DNA of 64,000 bases, taken from IMG/VR virus record IMGVR_UViG_3300044724_003561. One strand, 5' to 3'. Shown here in pieces: positions 31,966-47,616 of the stretch. Numbering within the stretch: position 1 is the first letter of the stretch; each line of letters begins with the position of its first letter. The notes beneath the pieces were generated by a model. It searched no databases. It was not told the origin of the DNA and was given only the letters and a program-made list of their open reading frames with translations. Source of the DNA: an uncultured virus (IMG/VR IMGVR_UViG_3300044724_003561) (taxonomy: Duplodnaviria; Heunggongvirae; Uroviricota; Caudoviricetes). The position numbers and the translations under genes were made by a program.

Positions 31966-32611
31966 TAGGTCTTACGTATCCTTTATATCCTAAATTGTAT
32001 TCTTTTGATTGAGGTCTTAATGGGTCATCTTCTCCCATCCACCTTGACGAGTGTAACACTATGAACATTAAACCCTCGTCTATTGCCATTTGTTTCGCCT
32101 TTTCTAAATTGTGTTCATTGTAACTAAACACTATAAACTGCCAAGATGGCGTTTGTTTTAAGTGTTTCTTTGCTTCTAACATAACTTCATATAATTTTTT
32201 ACCGTCTTGGTTAACACGATACATGTTACTTTCTTCAGGTAAACCATCTATTGCAAATATCCATTTTGCTTTAGGGTGTGCCTTAAACGCTTGTACGTAC
32301 CAACTTTTAGATTTGGCAGATGAGGCATTATGTACTGTAACTTGTATATCTTTATTATACAGGTACTCTAATATCTCAACAAACTTTGGATGATGTACAG
32401 GATCAGATAACTGACCACAAAAATTAAATGATGAAAAATAATCAGATAACTTTCTTATCTCATCCATTGTAGCATCCCGACCATAAACTTTTCTGCCTTC
32501 AAGTGTAAAGTTTGTCTGCCTTTGACAACGCATACATTCAAGTGGACACCTATTGCTTATGTCAATATTTATTCCTTTCTTTGATCTTCTATAAAATGCT
32601 ATATCACTCAT
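31955..32611 (-). CDS. Radical SAM core-domain protein
   Basis: CPLECMRC, GQLSDP, FAIDG, WQFIVF.YNEH. Confidence 0.88.
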   Translation of the reverse strand: MSDIAFYRRSKKGINIDISNRCPLECMRCQRQTNFTLEGRKVYGRDATMDEIRKLSDYFSSFNFCGQLSDPVHHPKFVEILEYLYNKDIQVTVHNASSAKSKSWYVQAFKAHPKAKWIFAIDGLPEESNMYRVNQDGKKLYEVMLEAKKHLKQTPSWQFIVFSYNEHNLEKAKQMAIDEGLMFIVLHSSRWMGEDDPLRPQSKEYNLGYKGYVRPNVR

Positions 32612-33471
32612 CTTAAATGTTTTAGTAAATTTTCTATTTTATCTTTTTGTTCAGTTAAACATTTTGCAGGTCTTTTCCAATATACAGGTCCACCATCTTT
32701 AATAGATTTATCTCTTAAATAAATCACTTCTTTTCCTAACCATTTACATTCTTGTATAATTCTAGGTGCAGGATCAAAGTTAGGTTTAGTGTAAACATAA
32801 GTGTCAAATAAACCTAATAGATTTTTAACAGGTACGAATACATGATTATGTTTTTGACTTATGTACTTATCTTTATATGCTATGATACCATGTGACGTAT
32901 AATTTTTTATATGTTTTTCTACTTCTCTATAATATGTTTTATTTGTTCCTAAGAATAGATATTTAAATTGTATGTTATCTTCTATAGGTTTGTATATACT
33001 AAAGTTTATTATCTTTTCAAACTGCTCACCTACACCGTTTACATATACCTCATGGTCACATAAGTCAATTACTTCTTCAGGTCCGTAAAATTCTAGTGCG
33101 ATAGGATATTCTTTAATATGATTTTCTGAATATACAGATATAAGTTTACCATTGAACAAACTATGTAATGTTAATTTTTGTTCTTCAGTATATTCATTGT
33201 AATCAAGGTATGCAAGTGTCAACATACTTCTACCCATAATTAAAGTAGTGTCATCTGACCGTGGCATATAGTCATTAAAGACTATATTTTCAAACTTTGT
33301 ATAACACTCATTTATTGCGTCAATGTAATCTTGTATTGTATGTTTTTTGTTGGGTATAACAATGAGTTTGGCACTTATACCTAGGTCGTTGAGAAAACAA
33401 CAATGTTCGTAACTGTAATGAAACAGACCATCACCAGGTTTACTTGTACATACTATATTTACATTTTTCAT
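32608..33471 (-). CDS. Hypothetical protein, possibly glycosyltransferase-related
   Basis: First gene of the leftward operon; C-terminal FDPAPRIIQEC..LGK resembles a GT-B acidic motif (weak). Confidence 0.4.
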   Translation of the reverse strand: MKNVNIVCTSKPGDGLFHYSYEHCCFLNDLGISAKLIVIPNKKHTIQDYIDAINECYTKFENIVFNDYMPRSDDTTLIMGRSMLTLAYLDYNEYTEEQKLTLHSLFNGKLISVYSENHIKEYPIALEFYGPEEVIDLCDHEVYVNGVGEQFEKIINFSIYKPIEDNIQFKYLFLGTNKTYYREVEKHIKNYTSHGIIAYKDKYISQKHNHVFVPVKNLLGLFDTYVYTKPNFDPAPRIIQECKWLGKEVIYLRDKSIKDGGPVYWKRPAKCLTEQKDKIENLLKHLR

Positions 33472-33485
33472 AATATATTATAACA

Positions 33486-33501
33486 TATTTATGTATAAAT
33501 A
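33486..33501. promoter_or_regulatory. Back-to-back late promoter motifs heading both island operons
   Basis: CATAAATA (-) 33493-33486 directly abuts TATAAATA (+) 33494-33501. Confidence 0.75.
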
Positions 33502-33538
33502 TCAATAGAGGGTAGAGTAGAGAATTAAGGAATGAAGC

Positions 33539-35389
33539 TTGAAAAAGGTATATTTTACTCAAATAAACAATCTAATTGCTGACGCTATCTTTTTACCGTT
33601 AAGTGTTGCTTACATATGGGAATATTGTAAGACACAGGTAACAGATTGGGAACTAGGAAACATCTTCTTTGAAAGAGAGTCTGTAGAGGACTATCTAAAA
33701 AAGATAGACAATCCTGACATCTTAGCATTATCAACATACGTGTGGAACTGGGACATAACTTGTCAGTTAGCAAGAGCAGTCAAAAAGAAATATCCTAATT
33801 GCAAAATAGTAATGGGTGGACCACAAGTGCCATTCAAACAAAGTTGGTTAGAAGACAATACTGACCTATGCGATATTATAGTTACATATGCAGGTGAAAG
33901 AGCATTTGCTGAAATACTAAAAGGTAACTATACGTACCCAGGCGTAATGACAAAAGACTCTTATACGCCACCTAAACCAGATAAAGAATTAAACGACATA
34001 CCAAGTCCTTATTTAAGTGGGTTGATGGATAGTCTTATGCAACCTGGTAAACAATATAGTGCTATCATAGAAACTAATAGAGGTTGTCCATATAGTTGTT
34101 CTTTCTGCGATCAACAAGATTTATATTACAATAAGATTGCCATGTTTGATTATGATAGAGTAATAGGTGAGATAGATTGGATTGTAAAAAATAAAATTGA
34201 CTTCTTATACTTTGGTGATAGTAATGTAGGTATGTTCAATAGAGATGTTGACTTTATAAGACACATCGCTAAACGTAGAAATGAAACTGGTTATCCTAGA
34301 CAAATAGATTATAGTACAGCAAAACAACAACCAAAACGTATTGTTGAGTTGGGTGAAATACTCAATAAAGAAGCAAAGATAAGACGTGGTGTTACAATTG
34401 CTTTACAAAGTATGAATCCTAAAACATTAAAAGCAATCAAAAGAATTAATCTTGCAAATGAAAAATTAGAACAAATTGTTGGCGACTATAATAAAGCAGG
34501 CGTTGATAATTATTGTGAACTAATTGTAGGTTTACCTGAAGAAACATTAGAAACATGGATAAAAGGAATAGGTAAGATACTAGAATTAGGAAGTGACCAT
34601 GCGTTGACAGTACACCCTTTGAGTATCGTACCTAATACTCCTTTTTCTGATCCTGAATATAAAAACAAATACGGATACAAATATACAAAGACAGCTGCAC
34701 CTGCAGGTGGTAATACTTATCCTAAAGATAGTAATGGTGAGATTGATTATGTTGCCTATGAAAGTAAAAGTTATAGTAAACAAGATTATATAGACATGTA
34801 TTTTTTCGCTAAAGGTCTTGTGATACCTCATCACTATCATGGCGTTAGTCAAGTTGCAGCCACATATCTAAAACGAGAACATAATGTATCTTTTATAGAT
34901 TTTTATAAAAAATTATTTGAGTATAGTAGAAATGGTAATGGTATACTAAATGAGGAATATAAAAATCACACAAACAGTTTGAAACAAAGTTTATTTGAAG
35001 ATAAGACATGGGGTAGAACAATAGAAGGTGGTGATGATTTTCATATACAAGATAATGGTGCAACGGCTTCTTTCTTGTATAGAAACATAGACAAGGTACA
35101 CAAAGAGGTTATAGACATATGTAAGAAAGAATATAATGTTGATGTATCAGAAGCGTGCCAGTTTAACAAGCACATTATTGACACATATGAAAGAGATGAT
35201 ATAGAAAAACAATTTAACAAAAACTGGTATAGTTGGTTTTATGATAACAAACCACTAATTTCAGTTAACAATATCGTTTCTGTAACCGTTTATAAATATA
35301 AAGATATAGTAGACCACTCAAAGCATTTATTCTGGTGGGGAAGAAAAGCCAAGAGATGTTTTTTGAAATCAAAGGAGATTACGTTATGA
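33539..35389 (+). CDS. Cobalamin-dependent radical SAM enzyme (B12-binding + radical SAM)
   Basis: LPLSVAY, STYVWNW, VMGGP, GE in the B12-binding region; ETNRGCPYSCSFC; TTG start with SD AAGGA. Confidence 0.9.
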   Translation: MKKVYFTQINNLIADAIFLPLSVAYIWEYCKTQVTDWELGNIFFERESVEDYLKKIDNPDILALSTYVWNWDITCQLARAVKKKYPNCKIVMGGPQVPFKQSWLEDNTDLCDIIVTYAGERAFAEILKGNYTYPGVMTKDSYTPPKPDKELNDIPSPYLSGLMDSLMQPGKQYSAIIETNRGCPYSCSFCDQQDLYYNKIAMFDYDRVIGEIDWIVKNKIDFLYFGDSNVGMFNRDVDFIRHIAKRRNETGYPRQIDYSTAKQQPKRIVELGEILNKEAKIRRGVTIALQSMNPKTLKAIKRINLANEKLEQIVGDYNKAGVDNYCELIVGLPEETLETWIKGIGKILELGSDHALTVHPLSIVPNTPFSDPEYKNKYGYKYTKTAAPAGGNTYPKDSNGEIDYVAYESKSYSKQDYIDMYFFAKGLVIPHHYHGVSQVAATYLKREHNVSFIDFYKKLFEYSRNGNGILNEEYKNHTNSLKQSLFEDKTWGRTIEGGDDFHIQDNGATASFLYRNIDKVHKEVIDICKKEYNVDVSEACQFNKHIIDTYERDDIEKQFNKNWYSWFYDNKPLISVNNIVSVTVYKYKDIVDHSKHLFWWGRKAKRCFLKSKEITL

Positions 35390-35970
35390 TAAGAGTTGGC
35401 GATATAATACCAGATGTTAAAACTATGCACAAAGATAGTGTAGCCACAAACTGGTATTCTACACACGAATTATTTAAAGATAAAAAGATATTACTAATAG
35501 GATTGCCTGGTGTATTTCTAGTTGAGTATGCAGCCACACATTTAAAAGCATACGACTTCTATTACAGCAAGATAAAAGAACTAGGTATTGATGAAGTATA
35601 TTTTACAAGTGTTGATAATTGTTACGTACAAAACGCATATCACAAATCAGAAAATTTATCGTACCTAAAAAACTTACCTGACCCTAATGGTGATTGGGCT
35701 ACATCTATAGGTATGTTAGAGAGTATGAGTAAAGAAGGATTAGGAAATTGTAGTCATAGATACGCTATGATTATAGACAATCTAATTATGAAACATTGTA
35801 AGTATGAAGACTTTACACACAATCCTATGACGTGTTTTCAAGTATCAGACGCTGATACAATGATTAAGTATTTAGAAATTATACAAACAAATTATGAAAG
35901 GTTTAATGATGACGCCAGAGATAAGGTTGACGTCCTTGGAAGAAACAAGATCAGCACCGTATTGTCGTGA
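35386..35970 (+). CDS. Peroxiredoxin-5/redoxin-like protein lacking the canonical peroxidatic Cys
   Basis: IRVGDIIPD, GLPG.F, GIDEVY..SV, LPDPNG, RYAMII; the PxxxTxxC position reads PGVFLVEY; start set by SD AAGGAG. Confidence 0.8.
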   Translation: MIRVGDIIPDVKTMHKDSVATNWYSTHELFKDKKILLIGLPGVFLVEYAATHLKAYDFYYSKIKELGIDEVYFTSVDNCYVQNAYHKSENLSYLKNLPDPNGDWATSIGMLESMSKEGLGNCSHRYAMIIDNLIMKHCKYEDFTHNPMTCFQVSDADTMIKYLEIIQTNYERFNDDARDKVDVLGRNKISTVLS

Positions 35971-36550
35971 GCTAAAAACTCTTTGGTATGATAGAGAATA
36001 TTTATTAAATCATTTAGAGAATATAGACGAGAACAATTGGTATCTGTTTGATTGTGGTCACATAAGATGGACTGTACAAGAGGCATTTAACGCTAGACGA
36101 GAATGTAAAAACTATCCTTTTAGTGAGTTTCATTATGAGTTGATAAATCTTTTTACACCTGCAATATCTTTTGATACTGTATTATACACACAAACAGCAG
36201 TAGGTGGTGCACCACCACACCAAGATAGAAACAGACCTGCTGCTTTAAACTTTGCAATACGAGGTGAGTTTAGTGATACAAGTCCACAAGTCTTCTATGA
36301 TAGTTTTGATAGAAGTACAGAAAAGTATAGAATGACATATGAGAAAAATGATATTACAAATGAATTTGCACCTTGGATATTTAAAGGTCCTGAAATACAT
36401 GGTGTAGAAAACAAGACAGAAAAAAATAGAATTATTATAACTTGTGCTTGGCGACATAACAGTTATGAAGATATAGAGAAAAGATTACTAGATGGTACGT
36501 TAGTAAACTGGGAACAAAATGAGAAAAACAAAAGGATAAAATTTATATGA
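35894..36550 (+). CDS. 2OG-Fe(II) oxygenase-like protein
   Basis: PPHQD...ALNF...IHGV...R: HxD...H triad. Confidence 0.7.
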   Translation: MKGLMMTPEIRLTSLEETRSAPYCRELKTLWYDREYLLNHLENIDENNWYLFDCGHIRWTVQEAFNARRECKNYPFSEFHYELINLFTPAISFDTVLYTQTAVGGAPPHQDRNRPAALNFAIRGEFSDTSPQVFYDSFDRSTEKYRMTYEKNDITNEFAPWIFKGPEIHGVENKTEKNRIIITCAWRHNSYEDIEKRLLDGTLVNWEQNEKNKRIKFI

Positions 36551-37200
36551 GTAGTATAGATAGAACAAACAAAGCACTTCAAAGACTATCTACTATGGGT
36601 GACTGGTTGCAAATGAAACAACACATCAATACTAGACAGATAATGAAAGACCTTGAGCCGTACAAAGACTCATGGAAACCTTACAATTTAAGAAACCCAA
36701 ATAACAGGTGGGGTTTAAGTGTAACAAGTTTAGATGGCAAGTTAAGTGGTATACCTGATTTAGATAGTTTACTACAATACAATAAAATACATGGTACTAG
36801 TATTACAAATCATCACATAAAAGAATATACCGAAGTATATGATAACTCAAAAGAATTGCAGAAACTCATTGAACCATGGAAACCTTGGTTGGGAAGATGT
36901 CACTTTCTAAAACTAAACACAGGTGGTTATTTTCCTGAACACTATGATGTAAACAAATTAGAATATGGTTATGATGAAATAAGATTTATTGCTTTCATCA
37001 ACAGGTGTGATAAAAAAGATTTAAAGTTTATATATGAGGATACAGTTAGAGATGTTAAAGATGGCCAGATGTTTTTCTTTAACGCAAATAAAAGACATTC
37101 AGTTTTTAGTACATCGGACGATATTATTATGTTAGTATTTTGTATGAAATTTGATGAACATTTATTTGAAAGATTAATAGAACAATATAGGTATGCGTAA
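36547..37200 (+). CDS. 2OG-Fe(II) oxygenase, Asp/Asn beta-hydroxylase-like
   Basis: GGYFPEHYD...G.MFFFN....HSVF. Confidence 0.75.
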   Translation: MSSIDRTNKALQRLSTMGDWLQMKQHINTRQIMKDLEPYKDSWKPYNLRNPNNRWGLSVTSLDGKLSGIPDLDSLLQYNKIHGTSITNHHIKEYTEVYDNSKELQKLIEPWKPWLGRCHFLKLNTGGYFPEHYDVNKLEYGYDEIRFIAFINRCDKKDLKFIYEDTVRDVKDGQMFFFNANKRHSVFSTSDDIIMLVFCMKFDEHLFERLIEQYRYA

Positions 37201-37733
37201 TGTGGTATCATAAAAAATTTAAATTACAATACGACACTAACGTTTTCAATGAGATAATTGAATATGCTGAAAGAGCAACATGGAGACAAGGGTACGATCA
37301 AAATGGGTTACTTTGGAATGTTGAAGAACTACCTTTAAACCCTAAACAATTTCCTATACTAAATGAATTATATGAAGGTCTTAATACAGAATTTAAAAGA
37401 CCATCATTTTTTATTAGTAATGTGAAACCTGGTGGGTTAGTAAACCATATTGACCACAACAAGTGGGGCAATCTAGGTATACCTTTAAAAGGTGATTTTA
37501 AAAATACACCTCAATACTTCTACGATCAATTCAATCATCCAGTAGAGTCATTTGTAGTTGACAGTCCTGTTATATTCAATACACGTATGTTACACGCTGT
37601 ACCTAGACAGTTAACTGATACAGGACCTAGATGGGTATTGATGATGGATTTATTTGAGTGGGTTGATAAGTTGTTTGCAAAGATTGACAACAAAACTATA
37701 TGGACAGATACAAAGAATTTTAAAAATGCGTAA
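37200..37733 (+). CDS. 2OG-Fe(II) oxygenase-like protein
   Basis: PGG...HID...FNTRMLHAV...R. Confidence 0.72.
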   Translation: MWYHKKFKLQYDTNVFNEIIEYAERATWRQGYDQNGLLWNVEELPLNPKQFPILNELYEGLNTEFKRPSFFISNVKPGGLVNHIDHNKWGNLGIPLKGDFKNTPQYFYDQFNHPVESFVVDSPVIFNTRMLHAVPRQLTDTGPRWVLMMDLFEWVDKLFAKIDNKTIWTDTKNFKNA

Positions 37734-39390
37734 CTTCTATTTCTTACAGATACCTTTAGGTACAGACGCAGCCTATCTACCACAAGCAGTAGGTACGATC
37801 TGGTCTTATTGTAATCAGTTTGAAGAAGTACGAAAGAAATATAAACTTGCAGGTGTATGGTGGAACAAAGAGATTGATATAGTTGAACCTGATTTTATAG
37901 CTGCAAGTTGTTATATGTGGAACTGGAAAATAACATATGACGCATTGAAAGAAATAAAAAAGAAGTATCCTAAATGTAGAATAGTCGTAGGTGGACCTGA
38001 ACCACAATATACATCTGAATGGTGTAAAAAACATCCTGAAATAGACGCTGTGTTAGCATACTATGGTGAAGAAACAATGAGAAGATTACTAGTAGATGAT
38101 GATCTTAACATACCAGGTGTTGTTACAAAAGATTTTAACAATGCAGCTGAGGCAGAATATGCCGACCCTAAAATGATACCTAGTCCCTATCTTAATGGTT
38201 TCTTTGATAGTTTATTAGAAGGCAACACACAAAAAGTCAGAGCAATCTTTGAAGGCAATAGAGGTTGTCCTTATACTTGTTCTTTCTGTGACATAGGCCA
38301 TAAGAAATATACAAAGATACAAATGTTTGAAACAGAAAAATGTTTAAAAGAATTAAAATGGATGTGTGATAGAAATGTAACTGCTATAGATGTAGCAGAT
38401 AGTAACTTTGGTATATTTCCTAGAGATGAAAAACTTGTAGATTTTGTTGTCAGTCAAAAAAAACTAGGTAACTTTAATGGTAGATTTATGCCTACGTGGG
38501 CAAAGACACATGGCGATAAGATAATGAAGTTAGCAAAGAAATTACAAGACGCAAATGTAGATGACACTTTTGGTTTTAGTTTACAATCTACAAATCCTGA
38601 AACTTTAGATAATGTCAATAGAAGAAATGCGTTTGATATTAAGAGTTTCAAACCTATCATAAAAGATTTAAAAGACAAAGGTGTTTCATCATATACAGAA
38701 TTAATCTTTCCTTTACCTGGCGATAGTTTAGAAACATTTAAATATGGTCTACATGAAATAGTTGATATGCCTGCACCATTTGATATGATACAGATTAATA
38801 CTTTAAGTAGATTAAGTAATACAGAATTTAATACAGGTTTTCCTGAAATGATATGGCAAAATATTAAAGGTACTGCAAAGCCATATAACAATGATGTAAT
38901 AGATGAGATTGCTGTTGCAACAGATAAGATGACAAGAGACCAAGTCTTTGAAGGCTTCTTTTATAGTAGAAGTTTCTTAATACCAATGTACTGGTATGGT
39001 CTAGCAAAGTATCATGCTGATTGTTATTATGAAATTAATGGTAATAGAAGTGAATTATTTAAAGACATATATTCAAAACTATTTAAGAATAAAACATTTA
39101 TGAAACACAAACTAGATGTTAGAGAACATTATTTTAAAGCACTTAACGAATACAAAGACATTGGATATAAGATACTTAATAGAGATATAAATTATTATAC
39201 AGATACAGCTTATTCTCACTTGTTCTATACCGAGAATAATATATTTGATGTGTTCAAAGAAATGTATCCAGAATATGATGAGATTATTGATCGCAACAAA
39301 AAAGATTTCAGACCTATTGACGATAAAATGGAATGGCTCAGAGATATACACGTTAGAGGTAGATTTAGTGAGTCTTGGAGAAAAACATGA
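37726..39390 (+). CDS. Cobalamin-dependent radical SAM enzyme, second paralog
   Basis: YLPQAVG, SCYMWNW, VVGGP, EGNRGCPYTCSFC, DSNFG; start set to MRNFYF. Confidence 0.9.
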   Translation: MRNFYFLQIPLGTDAAYLPQAVGTIWSYCNQFEEVRKKYKLAGVWWNKEIDIVEPDFIAASCYMWNWKITYDALKEIKKKYPKCRIVVGGPEPQYTSEWCKKHPEIDAVLAYYGEETMRRLLVDDDLNIPGVVTKDFNNAAEAEYADPKMIPSPYLNGFFDSLLEGNTQKVRAIFEGNRGCPYTCSFCDIGHKKYTKIQMFETEKCLKELKWMCDRNVTAIDVADSNFGIFPRDEKLVDFVVSQKKLGNFNGRFMPTWAKTHGDKIMKLAKKLQDANVDDTFGFSLQSTNPETLDNVNRRNAFDIKSFKPIIKDLKDKGVSSYTELIFPLPGDSLETFKYGLHEIVDMPAPFDMIQINTLSRLSNTEFNTGFPEMIWQNIKGTAKPYNNDVIDEIAVATDKMTRDQVFEGFFYSRSFLIPMYWYGLAKYHADCYYEINGNRSELFKDIYSKLFKNKTFMKHKLDVREHYFKALNEYKDIGYKILNRDINYYTDTAYSHLFYTENNIFDVFKEMYPEYDEIIDRNKKDFRPIDDKMEWLRDIHVRGRFSESWRKT

Positions 39391-40292
39391 TAAACAAATT
39401 AATCTGGAATAAAATAGAAGAATTATTTTACTGGAACATATCAGTAGATAGCCCTATCAATCAATTACCTTTTACAATGGAATTTATTCTTGCTTGTCAA
39501 AAAGAATTTTCTATGACAGTAAGAGATAAAGAATACCCTATACATTTAGGTGGCATAATGGATTGGCACGATAAAACAATGGGCGATTTCGTAAAAGAAA
39601 TAGATAAACAATATCAAAGTAATTACTTTGTAGCAGAAAATGGTACAAGTACAACAGGTGTCGTAGGTGAAATAAAAGATGTAAACGATAAACCTATTAC
39701 GAACAAATGGAATATAAGAGGTGACGCTCTTGTTAAAAGATTACAAGCAATGCAAAAAGAAAGACCTAATCTAACAATATTAGATATGGGTTGTGGTGTA
39801 AACGAATATAAGAAACACTTAAACAATGTTACAGGTGTTGACCCTTACAGAAAAGAAGCAGATATATTATGTAGTCAAGCAGATTTTAAACCTGCTAATG
39901 ATATAAAATGGGATGTAATTATATGTTTTGGTCCTCAAAACTGGTATACGTATGATGAACAATATAGAAACTTTATGACGTTAAAGAAATGTTTAGCACC
40001 TAGTGGTTTACTATTATGGTCACACGTTCATAATTACTATAAAGTATTTCAACCAGATCACCCACATGGTCACACTTGGATACATGGCGATTTAGAACAC
40101 GCACAAAAAAATAGTGCGTTTTATTTCTACGATAGAAACTGGAAGTACACATGGTACTTTAATTGGACTGAACATGCTGTAAATACACTTGCAGGACATG
40201 TAGGTTTAAAAATAAACAAAGTTGATTATGACCATTGTAATTTATACAGACCACCTATGTACAGAATATTTACGGAGATGAGTCATGTTTGA
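39387..40292 (+). CDS. Class I SAM methyltransferase with ACP-like N-terminal region
   Basis: ILDMGCG, GVDP, LAPSG; the N-terminal ~75 aa resemble acyl carrier protein helices. Confidence 0.75.
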   Translation: MINKLIWNKIEELFYWNISVDSPINQLPFTMEFILACQKEFSMTVRDKEYPIHLGGIMDWHDKTMGDFVKEIDKQYQSNYFVAENGTSTTGVVGEIKDVNDKPITNKWNIRGDALVKRLQAMQKERPNLTILDMGCGVNEYKKHLNNVTGVDPYRKEADILCSQADFKPANDIKWDVIICFGPQNWYTYDEQYRNFMTLKKCLAPSGLLLWSHVHNYYKVFQPDHPHGHTWIHGDLEHAQKNSAFYFYDRNWKYTWYFNWTEHAVNTLAGHVGLKINKVDYDHCNLYRPPMYRIFTEMSHV

Positions 40293-40893
40293 ACAAGGTA
40301 ACTTCTTTGTCAAATGTCATAACATTTATTACAATCAACAATGGTTAATAGATGTATTAGATAGTTTGAAACCTAGTGATTGGGTAAACGGAGTTAGTAG
40401 AACAGGCGTAGCATGGAATGTTAGTGAGTGTAGAAATATACCATATGAGAATATGTGGAAAGATATTGTAGAGAATATGAATTTAGATCAAGTCGGTAGT
40501 ACAGAAAGAACATTCCATGGTAAAAAACCATGGGCATTCTTTTCTAAATTACCACCAGGTGGCATAAATTTACACTATGACCATAGACGTTGGGGTGCGT
40601 TACTGTTTCCTGTAAGAGGTAAGTTTGAAGTTACACCTCAAATATTTGCAACAGAAAACTATACAGAAATAGAAAGATTTAATTTTACTAAAAGTAAAAT
40701 ACACAATAATGGTACACCTGTATTTTTTGATAGCAGAGTTTTACATGCTGTACCTACACCTTTAGATTTAGAGGAAGAAAGAGTTGTATTTTCTGTAAAC
40801 ATACACTCACACCCTACAGAATTTTTTAGAAAAGCGATTGACGGAACATGGTTAAACAAGAATACAGAAAACATAGGTGTATCTAATGACTAA
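40285..40893 (+). CDS. 2OG-Fe(II) oxygenase-like protein
   Basis: PGG...HYD...FDSRVLHAV...ERVVF; clear paralog of 37200..37733. Confidence 0.72.
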   Translation: MFEQGNFFVKCHNIYYNQQWLIDVLDSLKPSDWVNGVSRTGVAWNVSECRNIPYENMWKDIVENMNLDQVGSTERTFHGKKPWAFFSKLPPGGINLHYDHRRWGALLFPVRGKFEVTPQIFATENYTEIERFNFTKSKIHNNGTPVFFDSRVLHAVPTPLDLEEERVVFSVNIHSHPTEFFRKAIDGTWLNKNTENIGVSND

Positions 40894-41452
40894 TTTTTAT
40901 TCTATACAAGCAGATAAAATGAAATTTAATTTAGATATGTTAGTTGATCTATACAAAACAGTAGATCAAACAAAGTGGGTACATAGACAAGATAAGTTAC
41001 CACAGTATTGGCCTATTGATGAAAACAGTACGTTTGATCGTAACCATGAATTTTACAGACTACTAAAAGAAAACATAAATGCTGATATAGATGAAACGAG
41101 AGTATATTTCAGTAGAGTACATCCAGGTGGTATACCTAACCATTGGGACTTTGAAAATTTTACTAAACTACAATTTCCTGTTATATGTGATGAAGAAGAT
41201 AACGATTGGTCAAAGTCGCCTGTTATCTTTATAGATCAATTTGACCAAGTTGTAGAAAGAGTAGAACATACGAATAATACGCCTATAATTTATAGTGCGA
41301 ATTACATGCACGGAACAATCAAATCTTTAGATAATACAAACGATAGAATTACTTTTGTTGTTGATATTAAGTATTGGTTTGCCAGAGTTAGATCAAAATA
41401 TAACAACGGTACTTTGTTTACAAACAACAAAGCATTTTGGAGTATGGCATGA
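40886..41452 (+). CDS. 2OG-Fe(II) oxygenase-like protein
   Basis: PGGIPNHWD...MHGT...DRITF. Confidence 0.7.
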   Translation: MTNFYSIQADKMKFNLDMLVDLYKTVDQTKWVHRQDKLPQYWPIDENSTFDRNHEFYRLLKENINADIDETRVYFSRVHPGGIPNHWDFENFTKLQFPVICDEEDNDWSKSPVIFIDQFDQVVERVEHTNNTPIIYSANYMHGTIKSLDNTNDRITFVVDIKYWFARVRSKYNNGTLFTNNKAFWSMA

Positions 41453-42105
41453 ACAGGTGGGATATAACTGTTAAACAAAGTAACTATGATTTCAATCCTT
41501 TTAGAGAAAGCGATCATGGTAAATACTTTAAAACAGTTACAAACATTTACGAGGACTGGTCAAAGGAATTAGAATATGCAAACAATCAACAATATGATTT
41601 CTATTGGCCTAGTCCTGTGAAACCAGGTGGCGATCATTTTGATTATGAGTATGAAAATAAACTAGTAGAAGATTGGGGTATACCTAAAGACTTTGTAATC
41701 TACAGAATGTGGACTGCAACAAAGAAAGAGTGTCCTATATTATGTGGTCTAGCAGACAGGTTAGGTTTAGAAGACGCACAAGTTAATATACAAACACAAA
41801 CTACAGGTATGATGTTACATTTACATATTGATAGTTTAACAGGTTTAAGAAAAGAAAGAAAAGATCAATCATCAAGCAGAGCAACTGATCCTGAATGGGG
41901 TAGAGTTTTTGTTATGTTAGAAGATTGGAAACCAGGACATATTATTCAATTTGGGAATACATATGTACCACCATGGAAAGCAGGTGATGTAGTATGGTTT
42001 GATTGGGCAAACATACCACATAGTACTGCTAACACAGGACCATGGCCTAGAACTATTGCCAAGATAACTGGCAAACAAACAGAAAAGTATAAAAAATTAT
42101 TATGA
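41449..42105 (+). CDS. 2OG-Fe(II) oxygenase-like protein
   Basis: HLHID...WKAGDV...PHSTAN.G..PR. Confidence 0.72.
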   Translation: MNRWDITVKQSNYDFNPFRESDHGKYFKTVTNIYEDWSKELEYANNQQYDFYWPSPVKPGGDHFDYEYENKLVEDWGIPKDFVIYRMWTATKKECPILCGLADRLGLEDAQVNIQTQTTGMMLHLHIDSLTGLRKERKDQSSSRATDPEWGRVFVMLEDWKPGHIIQFGNTYVPPWKAGDVVWFDWANIPHSTANTGPWPRTIAKITGKQTEKYKKLL

Positions 42106-42491
42106 ATATAACGCCTTTATTTGCTATTGCAATATTATTACCTAGTATTACAAGTAATCAAAGAATACAATATGGCATACCATTATCTTTAATGTTATTT
42201 AAAGATGTGTTTTTAGGTTTTCATGGCCTAATGATACCTGTCTATGGTTGTATGTTGATTTTCGTGCTACTAGGCAGACATATAAGTAATAGTATAACAG
42301 CAACGTTTGTAGGCGTTTTGATTTGGCATGTTGTTGTTAACTTCGCTGTATGGTACTCATACGGTGGCAATTTATTACAAACTTACATACAAGCAATACC
42401 TTTTGATTTTAATCTTTTGGTATCAAGTTTGATATGTGTTATGATAGGAAAATTATGTATAAAATATTACTCACATTATTTGTATTACTAA
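42102..42491 (+). CDS. Small multi-pass membrane protein, DUF6580-like putative (cobalamin) transport protein
   Basis: NITPLFAIA, D.FLGFH, NFAVW, Y.QAIPF..N pattern; about four hydrophobic segments; directly upstream of the BtuB-like gene. Confidence 0.6.
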   Translation: MNITPLFAIAILLPSITSNQRIQYGIPLSLMLFKDVFLGFHGLMIPVYGCMLIFVLLGRHISNSITATFVGVLIWHVVVNFAVWYSYGGNLLQTYIQAIPFDFNLLVSSLICVMIGKLCIKYYSHYLYY

Positions 42492-44221
42492 TTAGTTTTA
42501 CAAGCGCTAAAGCAGATGACTGTAGAGGTGATAGGCCACAATATGATGAAGATGGTCATCTCATTATCTATATCTGTAAATCATTTATTAGAAACTCAAG
42601 CGATCTAACTCATAAAACATATTCATATGAAGTTGTATCAGCAGACAAAGACGAACTACAAAAAGTATCTTCTTTAAACGTTGTACAATCTGGTCCTGAT
42701 GGCCAGTTAACTTCTACGTTTATGAGAGGTACAAATTCAAACCATACTCTTGTTACACTTAATGGTATTGCTATACAAGATCACTCAACACCAAATGGTA
42801 CTGAAGATTTATTTGCACACAGTTTTTTAGGTGTAGATAGAGTTGAAGTAATCAAAGGACCTATGGGTAGTATCTACGGACCTAATGCAATAGGTGGTGT
42901 TATCAATATGGTTACACAGGCAAATGGTCTAAACTATATTGAGTTATCAGGTGGTAGTTTTGGTCAGAAAACACAAGTAATAAAACTTGGTAAAGCAGAT
43001 TACTCAAAAGGTTTTATTATAGACTTTAGAGTAGAGAATGAAACTGCTGATGGTATATCTGTAGTAGATGGTACAGAAAAAGATGGTATCGCTGATAGAA
43101 ATTATATCTTTCAAGTAGAGAAGTTTCTAGGCAAATGGATGTTAAAGTCTAATATAATTCAAACTGTAAACAAATCTGATTTAGATAAATCTACAGACTA
43201 TACTGACTATACATCTAAATGGCAATTCAATAATCAATACATCTCTTTACAAAGTAAAGATACCGAGTTTTCTTTTCAAAAATCAAAACATAAAAGAACA
43301 TATGACGATAAAGGTACAAAAGATATTTACAATTCAGACCAAGAAACATTTATCGCTAGTCATACATTTCATCCAGAAAAAACAATATCTTTGACTACAG
43401 GATTTGAACACAATCTACAAGAAATAGATTTTGATACTAACATTGCAGGTTATGATTCAAACGTAGATAAAGAAAGACACAATCATGGTTACTATGTCAA
43501 TTTTGATAAACAACTTGATAGTGGTGTCTTCTTTCATAGTGGTATTAGACATGATACACCCGATACATTTGACAATCAAACTACAGGCAGAGTTGCTGTA
43601 GAAAAAAATGGTGTACATTTAAGTTACTCTACAGGTTACAAAGCACCTACAGTTTACGAGATGTATGGTAAAAACAATTATGGGTTTTTAGGTAACAGTA
43701 ATTTGATACCTGAAAAATCAAAGACATGGGAAATAGGTTACAAATCAGATGAACATAAGTTTGTTTATTTTGAATCAGAAATAGATAATCTTTTAAAGTA
43801 TGATACAAACACTTATGTTAACGATACTAAACAAAGTAAACAACATGGTGTAGAATTAAACAATACATTTACATATGGTAAAATACAATTGAGTAATAGT
43901 TTATCTTATACAGTATCAAAAGATGGTGACAATAAAGACATGTTAAGAAGACCTAACTGGCAGAATACATCAACAGTATATTATGATAACTTCTATGTTG
44001 ACTTTAATTACTTTGGCAAACACAAAGACATTGACGCTTCAACATATGCAAGAAAAGATATGCATGCTGTTGAAACATTTGATATAGGTTACAACATTGA
44101 TGTTGATAATAATACTTTCTTTTGGAGTATAAACAACGTCTTTGATAAGTCTTATGAAAGACCAGATGGTTACAATCAATACGATAGAACTTTTAATCTA
44201 GGCTTTAGAAAATACTTTTAA
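42455..44221 (+). CDS. btuB: TonB-dependent outer-membrane receptor, BtuB (vitamin B12)-like
   Basis: Signal peptide; plug QSGPDGQLTSTFMRGTNSNHTLV and RVEVIKGP..SIYG.NAIGGVIN; barrel YKAPT..EMYG...GN.NL.PEKSK.WE matches E. coli BtuB motifs as recalled; C-terminal Phe. Confidence 0.8.
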   Translation: MYKILLTLFVLLISFTSAKADDCRGDRPQYDEDGHLIIYICKSFIRNSSDLTHKTYSYEVVSADKDELQKVSSLNVVQSGPDGQLTSTFMRGTNSNHTLVTLNGIAIQDHSTPNGTEDLFAHSFLGVDRVEVIKGPMGSIYGPNAIGGVINMVTQANGLNYIELSGGSFGQKTQVIKLGKADYSKGFIIDFRVENETADGISVVDGTEKDGIADRNYIFQVEKFLGKWMLKSNIIQTVNKSDLDKSTDYTDYTSKWQFNNQYISLQSKDTEFSFQKSKHKRTYDDKGTKDIYNSDQETFIASHTFHPEKTISLTTGFEHNLQEIDFDTNIAGYDSNVDKERHNHGYYVNFDKQLDSGVFFHSGIRHDTPDTFDNQTTGRVAVEKNGVHLSYSTGYKAPTVYEMYGKNNYGFLGNSNLIPEKSKTWEIGYKSDEHKFVYFESEIDNLLKYDTNTYVNDTKQSKQHGVELNNTFTYGKIQLSNSLSYTVSKDGDNKDMLRRPNWQNTSTVYYDNFYVDFNYFGKHKDIDASTYARKDMHAVETFDIGYNIDVDNNTFFWSINNVFDKSYERPDGYNQYDRTFNLGFRKYF

Positions 44222-45507
44222 TGTTTGATACTATATTATGGGCTGTTATAGGCACTTTAAGTGGTGTCATATTTGGTGTGATACCAGGTGCAGGACCTTT
44301 TGTTGCAACGGCAACTCTATATCCTTTCTTAACGCATATAGAACCTGTCAATGTTATGATGTATTACATAACAGTTTTGATTGCAACTAATTATACAAAT
44401 AGTGTAACTGCTATTCTGTATGGTATACCTGGTGACGCTACAGCGATGAGTACTGCAAGGAATGGTCATAGATTATTCTTAAAAGGTTTTGGCAATCTAG
44501 CAGTTGCCTCTAACGCTGTAAGTAGTACAGTAGGAGTTATATTTGCTTTTACTGTTTTTATTTTAGTGTTGCCTTACATTATAGAAGTTTTTAGATTTTA
44601 TAATAGTGTATTACAGACAGTTATTGTTGCAGCTGCAATTGTAATGATTACACTATTGACAAAACAGAATAAATTGTTTACAATAGTATTGTTTTTATTT
44701 GGAGGCATGATTGCAAAAATAGGTATAGACCCTATTACATTTGATAGTTTTTTGACTTTCAATAACTCATATCTCGCAATTGGGATACCTTTTGCAAGTG
44801 TGATGATAGGATTATACATAGTGCCAGAACTAACAAAGTTAAACAATTTCAAAGTAGGCGTACCTAAACGTATAAATACTTTTACAGTTGGTAAAGATAC
44901 TGCCACCCCTACACTTATAGGAAGTTTTGTAGGATTTTGGTGTGGTATGATACCAGGTGTAACAAACATTCTTGGCAGTTATGCAAGTGCAAATATTATT
45001 AAAAGGTTTTTCAAAAAACCTGTACTTAAAAGCATAGCAGCCGCAGAGGCAGCAAATAATAGTGGCGCATTATCATCACTATTGCCTTTGCTTATACTAG
45101 CGATACCCATAACGGGAAGTGAAGTTTTGATTTATTATATTATGTTAGAAGATGGTTTCGTTTTCAACGCTCAAAATACAGTCAAACATTTAGAAAGTAT
45201 AATTTATATTATACCATTTGTGACTGCCTTTTGTCTGTGGTTAAGCTGGTACGGTTTCAATCTGTTAGGTAAGATTGCTTATTACTATAAAAAACATAGA
45301 AATATAGCAAACATCTTACTTCTCTCAATAATTAGCATTGCAAGTATATCAATATTCGCCATACGTGAATGGATGATTATCTGTATATTTGTTTTGTCTA
45401 TAATCGGTTTCTTAATTAGACGCTGGGACACTAGTCCTATTATTTACGGATACTTTCTAAGCGATCTATTTTATGAAAATTTTATTAGAACATTAATAAT
45501 CTTATAG
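44221..45507 (+). CDS. tctA: Tripartite tricarboxylate transporter permease, TctA family
   Basis: G.IPG.G, TAILYGIPGDA, G.IPG, AAEAANN, PLL.LAIP; multi-TM. Confidence 0.85.
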   Translation: MFDTILWAVIGTLSGVIFGVIPGAGPFVATATLYPFLTHIEPVNVMMYYITVLIATNYTNSVTAILYGIPGDATAMSTARNGHRLFLKGFGNLAVASNAVSSTVGVIFAFTVFILVLPYIIEVFRFYNSVLQTVIVAAAIVMITLLTKQNKLFTIVLFLFGGMIAKIGIDPITFDSFLTFNNSYLAIGIPFASVMIGLYIVPELTKLNNFKVGVPKRINTFTVGKDTATPTLIGSFVGFWCGMIPGVTNILGSYASANIIKRFFKKPVLKSIAAAEAANNSGALSSLLPLLILAIPITGSEVLIYYIMLEDGFVFNAQNTVKHLESIIYIIPFVTAFCLWLSWYGFNLLGKIAYYYKKHRNIANILLLSIISIASISIFAIREWMIICIFVLSIIGFLIRRWDTSPIIYGYFLSDLFYENFIRTLIIL

Positions 45508-45515
45508 GAGATAAA

Positions 45516-46298
45516 ATGAAAAAAATAATGTTAATAATAATGAGTATGTTATTCAGTACAATGGCATACGCACAAGTGCAAATTATCAACCCAGGTTCAC
45601 AAGAAGGTGTATTCAGACAAATACTTTCTACAATAGGTGATACAACTGACCACAATTTTGTTCAGGCAGACAATCCAGTTACTGCATACACTTATATAGA
45701 AGGTGCTGAAGGTGGCACAGAACCTATCTTAACAATATGGTCTAGTGAATGGCCAGGTGACGATAGTTTAAAAAGTCCGAAAGTATCTAAAGATAACATT
45801 GTAGCTTTAATGACATATGAGACTCTTATGTGTAGTAGAGCATACAATTCACTTGAAGATATGAGTGGACAAACTGTTAAGATTGCGACATGGGGATCAG
45901 AACCAGTTGCAAAATTTCTTACAAATTTAGGTGCAAAATATAATGTAAATTTTGTAGTTGTACCTTATTCTGGCAGCGGAAGTACTACTAAAGGTTATGT
46001 TGGCAAAGACGCCGATACTGTCTTTACAATTACTTCACGTCAAGCCGCATTAGAGGAAGATGGATCTAAATGTATTGCCTTTTCAGAAAAAGGTGAATTA
46101 GGTTTTAGATTTGTTGACGCAATCATCACCATTAATGCTAACTACGCCTTAACAAATGAATTACGTTCTGCTGTAACAAACCTCTCTACTACTACCGAGT
46201 GGAATAGTAAATTCAAAGGCTCTGTAACTTATGTTGGAAATGGTTCTAATCAAACTATAGAAATGTTTGAAGAGGCTGTTACTAATTTTAGTAAGTAA
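45516..46298 (+). CDS. Periplasmic substrate-binding protein, TctC/Bug-like
   Basis: Signal peptide, VPYSGSG motif (TctC VPY/FxGxG), adjacent to tctA. Confidence 0.6.
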   Translation: MKKIMLIIMSMLFSTMAYAQVQIINPGSQEGVFRQILSTIGDTTDHNFVQADNPVTAYTYIEGAEGGTEPILTIWSSEWPGDDSLKSPKVSKDNIVALMTYETLMCSRAYNSLEDMSGQTVKIATWGSEPVAKFLTNLGAKYNVNFVVVPYSGSGSTTKGYVGKDADTVFTITSRQAALEEDGSKCIAFSEKGELGFRFVDAIITINANYALTNELRSAVTNLSTTTEWNSKFKGSVTYVGNGSNQTIEMFEEAVTNFSK

Positions 46299-47616
46299 TA
46301 CAATTATGTAAGAGCTGGTTGGCATCCTTATAGTTGTCAAACAGCTCTTCCTGATCTCTACCAGTTATGTTAAGATTTACATTAAACTTTTTGTTTTGTA
46401 GATTTTGAAATTCAGGTATATTCATACCGACTTCTAACTTCTTATTCAGATAATTTAGATATTGTTCAACGATTTCTATATTCTTTATTTCTTTAATTAC
46501 ACCAGGTTTTAATTGAGTACAACCCCACAGTAGATGATTTGTAATTTCTGGTTCTTTGTTGTTACCTATATTGTTAAATATATTATTGCCAGGTAACTTA
46601 TCTAATATATTAATAAACTGACCTATACGTGTATTAAAATCTATTGCAATTAATTTTTTACCTGATATGTGAAAGTCAGGACCTGCAAAGTACATATCTT
46701 TTACTTTTAGTTTATCAACTATAGTCTGTACGAAACCATACATTATTCTATGTTGCTCTTCATCTACTTCACTCACAGGTATAGACCATACTGCCATATC
46801 TTTTGCGATATCACTTTTCTTACTGATTGAATGTTGATCTATAGGATTTTTATGAAAGTCTAATATGTCGCCATACTTTACTTTAGCATTTCTTACATAG
46901 AATAAACAATCTACTTTACCATCTTTAACATAACCATAAGGTGATATAGATGGCTCTTCAGACCAATAGTATTCTTGTGCCATAATTTTACAAGGTACAT
47001 TATTAAAGTTTTCATTTTGAATACCTGTTTTATTGATTTCAAAAAAATCATTATGATAATTTAGTTTACTTAAATGATCTAAAAAATGATGTTTGTTATT
47101 CCATCTTCTATACTCTATTATAGGTGTATTCTGATCTGATTTAGGAAAGAAAGAATTACTGCCTGTACCTATATCTGGTTTTGTAAAAAACTCATTGCCA
47201 TCAAATACATCTAGTTGACTATGAAAGGTAGGTGTAATACTTTTAGGTACGTTATGTTGTAGTCCTATTGCTCTACAAAAATCATCAAGTTTTTGTTTAT
47301 TACTAAACACCTCAGCTGCAAAGGCAGACATGTTGTTTATGCCGTAATAACTTTCTAATTGTGCTTGAATAGGAAATAAATTTTCTGATACACAAAACAC
47401 TTTATCACAAGATAAAATCTTTTGTGTAATTTCTATTATATCAAACTTCTTTGATACAACTAAATCGTCTATGTGTTTTATGAAAGGTTTGTAGCGATCG
47501 CCTGACTTGTTTGGCACCACATCACAAACTAATGTGATGTGGTTATTTAAATTCGCTGTGATAAGACCTTCGGTCTTGTTAAGACTACGCTTGTGTGATA
47601 ATATAATTACATTCAT
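46288..47616 (-). CDS. ATP-grasp ligase-like protein
   Basis: NKQKL, FTKPDIGTGS, AQEY, DFH...IDFNTRIG. Confidence 0.75.
   Translation of the reverse strand: MNVIILSHKRSLNKTEGLITANLNNHITLVCDVVPNKSGDRYKPFIKHIDDLVVSKKFDIIEITQKILSCDKVFCVSENLFPIQAQLESYYGINNMSAFAAEVFSNKQKLDDFCRAIGLQHNVPKSITPTFHSQLDVFDGNEFFTKPDIGTGSNSFFPKSDQNTPIIEYRRWNNKHHFLDHLSKLNYHNDFFEINKTGIQNENFNNVPCKIMAQEYYWSEEPSISPYGYVKDGKVDCLFYVRNAKVKYGDILDFHKNPIDQHSISKKSDIAKDMAVWSIPVSEVDEEQHRIMYGFVQTIVDKLKVKDMYFAGPDFHISGKKLIAIDFNTRIGQFINILDKLPGNNIFNNIGNNKEPEITNHLLWGCTQLKPGVIKEIKNIEIVEQYLNYLNKKLEVGMNIPEFQNLQNKKFNVNLNITGRDQEELFDNYKDANQLLHNCITY

Follow-up and report, generated by a model that had tools for sequence, protein, structure and literature searches.

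The stretch of DNA analyzed here, 64,000 nucleotides (nt) from an uncultured virus (IMG/VR record IMGVR_UViG_3300044724_003561) and referred to throughout as the window, carries a tightly packed operon in which the genes for a BtuB-like outer-membrane receptor and a small DUF6580 membrane protein stand in one run with those for two probable cobalamin (vitamin B12)-dependent radical S-adenosylmethionine (SAM) enzymes. We propose that this is a mosaic operon within the phage's host recognition cluster, made of three modules that also occur apart, and that its B12 importers feed the phage's own enzymes, a reading to which we assign a probability of about 0.6. The evidence that carries it is comparative: in related phage loci the receptor or DUF6580 lies next to a gene for a B12-binding radical SAM protein in 21 of the 21 assessable cases, which represent four distinct architectures. 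The coupling is one-way, in that the importers are an optional add-on that always stands beside B12 enzymes.

Organization of the operon

The run comprises 14 plus-strand open reading frames (ORFs) at 33539-46298, whose junctions overlap by 1 to ~77 nt or abut and whose largest internal gap measures 8 nt (at the TctA/TctC-like junction), and it meets a convergent gene on the minus strand. The features of the unit are the following:

33494-33501, plus strand: TATAAATA, a T4-type late-promoter-like motif inside a conserved 33-nt block
33539-35389, plus strand: rSAM1, a class B radical SAM protein (TokK/CysS/KedN5-like by Pfam, NCBIfam and PDB sequence comparison) with a TTG start
35335-35970, plus strand: peroxiredoxin-like protein, probable start ATG 35386, overlapping the rSAM1 stop
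35894-36550, plus strand: ox1, of an AspH-like 2-oxoglutarate (2OG)/Fe(II) oxygenase family (member of alignment A5)
36547-37200, plus strand: ox2, a cupin or AspH-like oxygenase (Cupin_2, Asp_Arg_Hydrox and hhalign matches)
37200-37733, plus strand: ox3, of the AspH-like 2OG/Fe(II) oxygenase family (alignments A4 and A5)
37726-39390, plus strand: rSAM2, a second class B radical SAM protein (the ORF opens at 37654; probable start ATG 37726)
39375-40292, plus strand: putative SAM-dependent methyltransferase
40285-40893, plus strand: ox4, an AspH-like 2OG/Fe(II) oxygenase by AlphaFold model and fold comparison
40877-41452, plus strand: ox5, of the AspH-like 2OG/Fe(II) oxygenase family (alignments A4 and A5)
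41437-42105, plus strand: ox6, an HxD...H protein, assigned as an oxygenase from this motif
42102-42491, plus strand: DUF6580 small membrane protein, short form
42434-44221, plus strand: BtuB-like TonB-dependent outer-membrane receptor, probable start ATG 42455
44221-45507, plus strand: TctA-family membrane subunit of a tripartite tricarboxylate transporter (TTT)
45516-46298, plus strand: TctC/Bug-family periplasmic binding protein by its predicted fold, 260 amino acids (aa), with a signal-peptide-like N-terminus
46288-47616, minus strand: convergent ATP-grasp-like protein, a probable carboxylate-amine ligase from an Atlas lead

An earlier note on this DNA, made from the sequence alone, had already described one tight plus-strand run behind TATAAATA and had placed in it two B12-binding radical SAM enzymes, a DUF6580-like membrane protein, a BtuB-like receptor, TctA and a TctC-like binding protein, all of which are borne out by the family and fold comparisons presented below. 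The same note had overlooked the peroxiredoxin-like gene (35335/35386-35970), and the span that it gave left out the ATP-grasp-like gene at 46288-47616, which belongs to the unit; its six oxygenases and its methyltransferase hold in part.

The promoter-like motif lies 38 nt upstream of the TTG start of the first gene. TATAAATA occurs 16 times in the window versus 14.7 occurrences expected by chance, with 15 of the 16 copies on the plus strand, and a reading of motif against gene positions places about ten of them at most 60 nt upstream of plus-strand genes, mostly structural ones. The 33-nt block that surrounds the copy in front of the operon (TTATAACATATTTATGTATAAATATCAATAGAG) is kept in 8/8 related loci, one of which, L038, has a different first downstream gene. 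This conservation fits a T4-type late promoter, for which we consider the block a candidate. A search of the phage sequence of the operon returned no riboswitch or other Rfam family.

Putative cobalamin importers adjoin B12-binding radical SAM genes

Both radical SAM proteins pair a B12-binding domain with a radical SAM domain (PF02310 at 1.8e-10 and PF04055 at 1.8e-11 for rSAM1; 3.7e-11 and 5.1e-14, respectively, for rSAM2), the B12-binding match being above cut-off in each, and both find the KedN5 family as their best NCBIfam model (4.6e-56 and 1.1e-46). The CxxxCxxC cluster motif is present in the two translations as CPYSCSFC and CPYTCSFC, the N-terminus of rSAM2 can be aligned to that of rSAM1, and an rSAM1 homologue in locus L027 starts with ATG. 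The closest solved relatives of rSAM1 are TokK (7kdx, 1.2e-66 over residues 3-463) and CysS (6.2e-48), which we take to be iterative cobalamin-dependent C-methylases of natural products. The phage proteins share the domain pair with TokK, CysS and KedN5 and differ from them in that they score far under the KedN5 family cut-off (190 vs 700 bits) and end in 150 C-terminal residues common only to marine and bacterial homologues. The KedN5 family is one of methylcobalamin-dependent C-methyltransferases. By these sequence relationships, rSAM1 and rSAM2 are probably cobalamin-dependent C-methylases.

The BtuB-like receptor retains both a plug (PF07715, 2e-15) and a barrel (PF00593, 1.1e-20). Its best NCBIfam model is TIGR01779 (TonB-B12) at 3.9e-52, which together with the BtuB model NF007926 leads all others by 35 orders of magnitude, and its best relative among PDB sequences is E. 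coli BtuB (5e-29), with CirA as the next receptor type at 2e-11. The preceding gene matches DUF6580 (PF20221) at 2.3e-17, with 64.1 bits vs a cut-off of 27 and model positions 1-26 uncovered. Phage and marine members of this family measure 127-143 aa vs 160-190 aa in bacteria and start ~30 residues later in alignment A2, so the short form probably lacks the first membrane helix of the bacterial forms.

To place these genes in related phages, IMG/VR was scanned three times, with BtuB, TctA and a TctC-like alignment as queries, and the resulting loci were tabulated by tblastn and phmmer. The contents of the slot that separates the enzymes from TctA change as a cassette: nine loci are of the window type, with DUF6580 and BtuB; eight have instead a 546-aa receptor, 26% identical and unaccompanied by DUF6580; and L038 carries a long-form DUF6580 alone. 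In both second-type receptors that were scanned, TIGR01779 is again the best model (4.8e-26 in L029 and 3.4e-27 in L040). A fourth arrangement is found in five loci (L007, L009, L010, L011 and L019), where DUF6580 and BtuB occur without TctA or the enzymes of the window and face a convergent, unrelated 406-aa B12-binding radical SAM gene whose top match in NCBIfam is a PhpK-like model; beyond it lies an Asp_Arg_Hydrox protein in all five, and a methyltransferase as well wherever the contig reaches far enough (L009, L011 and L019). The assessable set thus consists of seven window-type loci (L002, L003, L004, L005, L008, L013 and L015), namely those that reach the radical SAM genes, eight second-receptor loci, L038 and these five; the contigs of L014 and L017 stop at the receptor. 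Because many of the contigs are near-identical, the four architectures, rather than the individual loci, are treated as the independent units. The co-occurrence that the earlier note had proposed as a check therefore holds in one direction, the importers always standing beside B12 radical SAM genes and the enzymes occurring also without importers. Transporters and enzymes assort independently in part, and the single system into which that note had joined them is not supported as stated.

Several of these loci carry further features of their own. In L016, a 54%-identical relative (12114-12854), the genes that come after DUF6580 and BtuB, up to the contig end, are two for Fe-S assembly (IscA-like and NifU-like) and one of the Asp_Arg_Hydrox family, the IscA-like and NifU-like genes being further cofactor-supply genes beside an importer. 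L019 (PACV01000025.1) is an 8.5-kb contig filed under a Flavobacteriaceae metagenome-assembled genome (MAG) that holds phage fibre genes together with DUF6580, BtuB and the B12 radical SAM gene; given the fibre genes, it is probably a mis-binned phage contig. An NCBI DUF6580 protein (P0035, 69% identical) attributed to a Pelagibacterales MAG may likewise be mis-binned phage. A 13.6-kb contig from the freshwater-tagged, RNA-labelled run X18 has 42080-44185 (DUF6580 and BtuB) replaced by 1,637 letters that match the L029 variant. We rejected as a finding a dip in X17/X18 coverage over 42.5-44.2 kb, which reflects either this alternative-receptor variant or low cover. The habitat labels of X18 (freshwater) and of X12-X14 (soil) look odd for a marine phage.

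DUF6580 in riboswitch-controlled bacterial uptake operons

The DUF6580 family is carried by 14 of 401 alphaproteobacterial genomes. A scan of genome contigs with the DUF6580 alignment, in which loci were found with two peptide patterns only, gave five loci, and we compared 17 bacterial loci in total, four from this profile scan and 13 from the alphaproteobacterial genomes. A cobalamin-class riboswitch is present in the fetched flank of 8/17 (six RF00174, two RF01689), and six of these eight share the order riboswitch, TonB-dependent receptor, DUF6580 on one strand. One DUF6580 homologue is labelled 'putative transport protein' at NCBI; the literature searched yielded no mention of the family, and neither a solved nor a characterized relative was found for it. 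These neighborhoods constitute strong contextual evidence for a role of DUF6580 in cobalamin uptake, and we infer that the protein could act as an inner-membrane cobalamin carrier.

The same pairing bears on an alternative in which the receptor and its companions would be envelope proteins for host recognition or superinfection control, altering or masking surface receptors or serving as decoys, with no import involved. The genes do lie in a host recognition cluster, with baseplate genes on one side and tail-fibre genes on the other, TonB-dependent receptors commonly serve as phage receptors, and the alternation of two divergent receptor lineages in one slot is typical of arms-race loci. Against this, both lineages keep plug and barrel and match BtuB best, the pairing with DUF6580 reproduces that of a bacterial uptake operon under riboswitch control, and the link to B12 enzymes is left unexplained; we therefore judge a role confined to recognition improbable.

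Two of the bacterial loci come closest to the phage arrangement. L065 (G120) and L066 (G278) are located in single-contig genomes of ~1.2 Mb and 27.6-27.7% GC (1.16 Mb and 27.7% for L066), where an AdoCbl-II riboswitch-receptor-DUF6580 operon stands beside rRNA genes. In L066 the operon is convergent with the gene for a 692-aa protein colinear to rSAM1 (30% identity over 663 residues, 4e-93), and NAD-dependent epimerase/dehydratase genes flank the locus; in L065 the operon is preceded by a PhyH-type dioxygenase and an epimerase. From their size, GC, class-level sampling and adjacent rRNA genes, we presume these to be SAR11-type genomes, and the location to be their rRNA-linked hypervariable surface-glycan island.

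The bacterial loci also help to weigh the possibility that the transporters are independent auxiliary metabolic genes serving host metabolism (B12 for methionine synthase or other B12 enzymes, carboxylates for carbon and energy), which became neighbors of the enzymes as the island collected cassettes. Such an origin would agree with the swapping of the slot as a unit, with the existence of enzyme cassettes that lack any B12 importer, and with the presence of MetH-size and mutase-size B12-binding proteins in 4/4 DUF6580-bearing bacterial genomes checked. In addition, the island is known to collect accessory cassettes (PMC7029224), and phage PstS offers a precedent for general nutrient uptake (PMC12379486). 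It accords poorly with the adjacency of receptor or DUF6580 to B12-binding radical SAM genes in four architectures, of which two have radical SAM genes of unrelated families, with the translational packing of the importer genes into the enzyme run, and with the recurrence of the same pairing in bacterial locus L066. We consider independent acquisition for host metabolism unlikely, if the least improbable of the alternatives to importers that feed the phage's enzymes.

The putative carboxylate transporter travels with an ATP-grasp-like gene

The TctA protein (428 aa) matches PF01970 at 6.8e-58, with 196.7 bits vs a cut-off of 28.9, and covers 1-418 of 423 profile positions. The protein encoded downstream has no Pfam match, and the lone PDB sequence match of its profile is 7ndr at E 0.39; an Atlas lead connects it to PF03401. 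Its AlphaFold model (predicted local distance difference test score, pLDDT, 91.7) finds TTT binding proteins as all of the top five Foldseek matches, and in the VIA fold comparison it superposes on TctC (4x9t) with Z 17.9 and a root-mean-square deviation (rmsd) of 2.9 over 240 residues, the top ten rows again being TTT binding proteins and other binding proteins beginning at Z 11.7. The predicted structure thereby confirms a TctC/Bug fold for 45516-46298.

The assignment of the convergent gene is less direct. Atlas relates it at 0.96 to ATP-grasp_4/_3 clusters, and one of 12 homologues matches ATP-grasp_3 (PF02655), at 0.005; for the protein of the window, neither Pfam nor PDB sequences gave a match, and its profile returns chance-level PDB matches only. 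Its homologues conserve KPxxGxG, QE and DxNxRxG-like columns, which we take to resemble ATP-grasp motifs.

TctA, the TctC-like gene and the ATP-grasp-like gene occur together in 19/19 TctA loci. The scan with the TctC-like alignment gave 42 loci, of which the 21 more distant ones (L087-L107) were analyzed: the ATP-grasp-like gene adjoins the TctC-like gene in 20/21, an ox2 homologue is adjacent in 13/21, and TctA is present in 16/21, the remainder being cut by contig ends. The TctA/TctC module therefore travels tightest with the ATP-grasp-like gene and ox2. A TctA protein query gave no match in the five small DUF6580 genomes, which does not show absence. Records G406 and G407 (loci L093 and L095), 236-257 kb long and 66-72% complete by CheckV, contain the enzyme cassette with TctA/TctC and extend its occurrence to much larger, jumbo-size phages.

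The earlier note had proposed that the phage supplies two cofactors, B12 and 2OG. The B12 half stands on the adjacency seen in every assessable locus; nothing ties TctA/TctC to 2OG, whose import is no more than possible, the constant partners of the module being the ATP-grasp-like gene and ox2. From this linkage, an acid imported as a building block is an equally plausible reading.

Tailoring enzymes and the nature of the product

Six HxD...H proteins of ~200 aa each, none of which reaches a Pfam cut-off, accompany the radical SAM enzymes. Four of them (ox1, ox3, ox4 and ox5) form one small family with 62 representatives among 1.84 billion clusters (E up to 0.001); across the 49 sequences of its alignment A5, H97, D99 and H154 are invariant and R166 is present in at least 90%, and 14/49 members match Pfam Asp_Arg_Hydrox (PF05118). 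The profile of the family gave chance-level matches only against PDB sequences. For ox4, the sole HxD...H protein with a structure model (AF2, pLDDT 92.9), the top Foldseek matches are 2OG oxygenases, and the VIA comparison yields Z 11.7 to 7v4m (rmsd 2.7, 135 aligned) and Z 11.6 to human AspH (rmsd 2.9, 147 aligned), with a 2OG/Fe enzyme in every listed row; ox4 thus has the double-stranded beta-helix fold in its model. ox2 shows sub-threshold Pfam matches to Cupin_2 (8.8e-4) and Asp_Arg_Hydrox (0.035), aligns to A5 by hhalign at 95.5% probability (E 1.4e-8), and belongs to a family in which the H, D and H are invariant. ox6 has H130, D132 and H195 invariant in six homologues, no Pfam match, and an hhalign probability of just 5% to A5. 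Five of the six oxygenases that had been named from the sequence (ox1-ox5) are thus supported by alignment, and ox4 also by predicted structure, as AspH-like 2OG/Fe enzymes, the sixth being so called from its motif. The methyltransferase matches Methyltransf_23 at 4.2e-5, with 23.8 bits under a 27-bit cut-off, and we retain it as a weak call. The peroxiredoxin-like protein matches Redoxin in Pfam (4.9e-12) and phrog_2281, 'peroxyredoxin antioxidant' (1.6e-30).

This enzyme mix had been likened in the earlier note to the polytheonamide (Poy) set, and in one alternative the enzymes would C-methylate and hydroxylate, and so mature, either a polytheonamide-like ribosomally synthesized and post-translationally modified peptide (RiPP) or structural proteins of the phage. 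A combination of AspH-like hydroxylases with class B radical SAM proteins and a methyltransferase does resemble peptide-tailoring sets, AspH itself hydroxylates protein residues, weak NCBIfam matches to RiPP radical SAM models exist, and a late-type promoter would suit the modification of virion proteins; Table S4 of PMC7029224 lists SuiA/SuiB-like peptide-modifying proteins in pelagimyophages. As the earlier note had remarked, no precursor peptide is evident: no intergenic space exceeds 8 nt, the run leaves no room for a precursor gene, and no candidate was found, the small ORFs elsewhere in the island having been viewed shallowly. The best models and solved relatives of the radical SAM proteins (KedN5, TokK and CysS) are small-molecule methylases, and both the phage neighbors and the bacterial look-alike locus are nucleotide-sugar enzymes. 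Relative to the Poy set, which combines class B radical SAM enzymes with a methyltransferase and a hydroxylase, the phage run is further distinguished by lacking both an epimerase-type radical SAM and a LanM-like dehydratase. The analogy is therefore without support, and maturation of a peptide or virion protein appears distinctly improbable.

Since both the neighboring phage cluster and the bacterial look-alike locus hold nucleotide-sugar-type enzymes, these contexts favor the tailoring of sugars or of the envelope over the maturation of a peptide. The phage cluster in question lies upstream of the operon and largely diverges from it:

19692-33471, mostly minus strand: nucleotide-sugar/glycan-type cluster (Pfam and PHROG matches), consisting of 20893-33471 on the minus strand and 19692-20423 on the plus strand
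23740-26646, within the cluster: radical SAM and NodU/CmcH-type carbamoyltransferase fusion, 968 aa
27890-28738, within the cluster: further radical SAM protein
29052-30107, within the cluster: DegT-type sugar aminotransferase (3.1e-80)

Its members also include an epimerase/dehydratase, a methyltransferase and a PHROG glycosyltransferase, and many of its ORFs are without any family match.

A model for the mosaic operon

In the mechanism that we propose for the operon, a first module is a tailoring cassette of two class B radical SAM enzymes, five or six AspH-like oxygenases, a probable methyltransferase and a peroxiredoxin. A second module, the BtuB-like receptor and DUF6580, would provide cobalamin uptake, having lost the riboswitch of its bacterial counterparts and come under a phage late-type promoter instead. 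The third, for carboxylate uptake, would comprise TctA, the TctC-like protein, the ATP-grasp-like ligase and ox2. Late in infection, the phage would thus place its B12 importers into the host envelope and supply its B12-dependent enzymes, while the TTT system would import a carboxylate, which could be 2OG, consumed by the oxygenases, or else an acid to be attached to the product by the ATP-grasp enzyme. What the pathway decorates may be a sugar, glycan or small molecule of the cell envelope or virion. Gene identities, tight packing, modular build, gene associations and the lack of a riboswitch are established by the data; the specificity of transport, the timing, and the substrate and product belong to the proposal.

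A more specific version, which we offer tentatively and hold to be somewhat short of even odds, sees a two-membrane vitamin route, with a BtuB-type receptor and DUF6580 as a new carrier family, shed its riboswitch and settle in a late operon to serve the radical SAM enzymes of the virus; together with the imported carboxylate and the ATP-grasp enzyme, these would yield a methylated, hydroxylated surface glycan or metabolite that is also made by a host island resembling the SAR11 hypervariable region. An additional argument, that the SAR11 host lacks B12 uptake, has been dropped: PMC9296465 regards SAR11 as auxotrophic for B12 and as possessing btuB, and the riboswitch operon is present in genomes presumed to be SAR11-like.

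A number of results weigh against importers that feed the phage's enzymes. The coupling is not obligatory, because enzyme cassettes with TctA/TctC occur without BtuB or DUF6580: no receptor or DUF6580 lies within 10 kb in any of the 21 distant loci (L087-L107), and seven of these (L089 and L092-L097) have a KedN5-like radical SAM gene together with TctA/TctC. Four such records (87-257 kb, 23-72% complete by CheckV) are without BtuB and DUF6580 anywhere in the available sequence, and in one complete genome of 165.7 kb the second type of receptor is present and DUF6580 is absent. The B12 specificity of the window's receptor is only inferred, since its scores fall far under the curated BtuB equivalog cut-offs (177.6 vs 599.7 bits for TIGR01779, 153.5 vs 836 for NF007926), and no TonB, ExbB or ExbD family was detected among the window ORFs scanned with Pfam. 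For DUF6580, neither the single sequence nor its profile matches a PDB sequence at E up to 10, and 9/17 bacterial loci are without a riboswitch. TonB_C was found in three of five small DUF6580 genomes and not in G278 or G120, a weak negative given that the model is detected in only 3/14 control genomes. No TctB was found beside TctA and the TctC-like gene or among the ORFs scanned, a search that a fused or very divergent TctB might escape, and the ATP-grasp assignment of 46288-47616 remains a weak lead. Lastly, contigs of three RNA-labelled runs from three studies cover 29-30 of 30 bins; contigs in such libraries cannot show transcription, strand or starts and may reflect DNA carry-over.

Relation to known systems

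The importer pair resembles bacterial riboswitch-btuB operons, represented by E. coli BtuB (PDB 1NQE), in joining a receptor of plug and 22-strand-type barrel to a small membrane protein. It differs from them in that the phage copies have no riboswitch and no BtuCDF, place DUF6580 before btuB in inverted order, are embedded in an enzyme operon behind a late-type motif and score below the BtuB equivalog cut-off. The carboxylate module, in turn, has the complete TctA domain and the TctC/Bug fold of TctABC/Bug transporters, from which it departs by a short TctA (428 aa), a binding protein below Pfam TctC detection, the lack of a detected TctB and the ATP-grasp-like gene as constant partner. As with phage PstS (PMC12379486), the phage would supply part of a host-type importer during infection; here, in contrast, both membranes would be covered, and the imported molecule would be a cofactor for phage enzymes and not a bulk nutrient.

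Closest in genomic terms is the hypervariable host recognition cluster of pelagimyophages (Zaragoza-Solas et al. 2020, PMC7029224), which occupies the same genome place as the island that contains the operon. That paper describes the cluster as holding radical SAM cassettes and 'substrate transport' genes, lists among auxiliary genes in Table S5 a 'TonB-dependent vitamin B12 receptor', 'TctA family' and peroxiredoxin, includes several 2OG oxygenase clusters in Table S4, and also names an Asp/Asn hydroxylase. The earlier note's impression that no such phage system had been described accordingly needs qualification: the B12 receptor and TctA are on record there, listed separately and, in the text and tables consulted, not linked to the enzymes, with no indication of B12-dependence of the radical SAM proteins, of DUF6580, TctC-like or ATP-grasp-like genes, or of coupling. 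The literature searched contained no paper that links phage B12 import to phage B12-dependent radical SAM enzymes. What is new among phage auxiliary uptake genes is thus the placement of probable cofactor import beside the phage's own cofactor-dependent enzymes.

Known phage nutrient-uptake genes serve bulk nutrients such as phosphate, and vitamin import on behalf of a phage's own enzymes would, if true, follow a different logic. B12 limits marine productivity, and cells of the bacterial group that is most abundant in the ocean would then, once infected, become a B12 sink. DUF6580 gains a concrete, testable role as the riboswitch-controlled partner of BtuB. Moreover, a B12-dependent methylation and hydroxylation pathway would be shared by SAR11-like hypervariable islands and phages, where it probably shapes the cell surface that phages recognize.

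Genomic context

PHROG matches identify baseplate genes of the gp6, gp7, gp8 and gp25 types at 3.9-17.6 kb of the window, and neck proteins and tail fibres at 49-64 kb. For the gp6 homologue, identity amounts to 60.6% with that of Pelagibacter phage Mosig EXVC030M and 55.4% with that of HTVC008M, compared with 52.8% for OM43 phage Melnitz and ~40% for cyanomyoviruses. By the identities to Mosig and HTVC008M, the window derives from a T4-like myovirus with a pelagimyophage-type genome and a putative SAR11 host. The island spans ~17.8-48.4 kb, between a large VrlC-like protein and the fibre genes, a position that matches the host recognition cluster as given in PMC7029224.

With transporter genes being unusual in phages, and with L019 and P0035 filed under Flavobacteriaceae and Pelagibacterales MAGs, respectively, host DNA fused to phage DNA by misassembly has to be considered. 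The GC content of the operon (32.0%) is that of its surroundings (32.4% for the entire window), the operon is flanked by baseplate and fibre genes, many samples have yielded IMG/VR contigs, some of them 128-171 kb long, with the same gene order and the same joins to phage fibre genes, and L019 itself bears phage fibre genes. In a DNA run not flagged as the source, exact contigs reach from the methyltransferase into BtuB and from BtuB into the ATP-grasp-like gene. The phage origin of the operon, to which the earlier note had attached a caution about host-derived misassembly, therefore stands, and we regard such an artifact as extremely improbable.

In comparisons with the phage collection, megablast of the region gave no match, tblastn of BtuB retrieved bacterial-looking records and fragments only, and tblastn of rSAM1 gave a single weak gut-phage match; the cultured pelagimyophages of the collection are therefore without a match to these two proteins.

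Very large structural proteins are encoded at two places, 11517-17603 and 52236-58985, one a 2,028-aa protein (phrog_358) that is the VrlC-like marker bounding the island, the other a 2,249-aa tail-fibre protein. Finally, a sigma-70-like site (TTGATA-17-TATAAT with TG, 11/12) at 33505-33477 faces the glycan-type cluster, and for this reason the timing of the two divergent units, cluster and operon, may differ.

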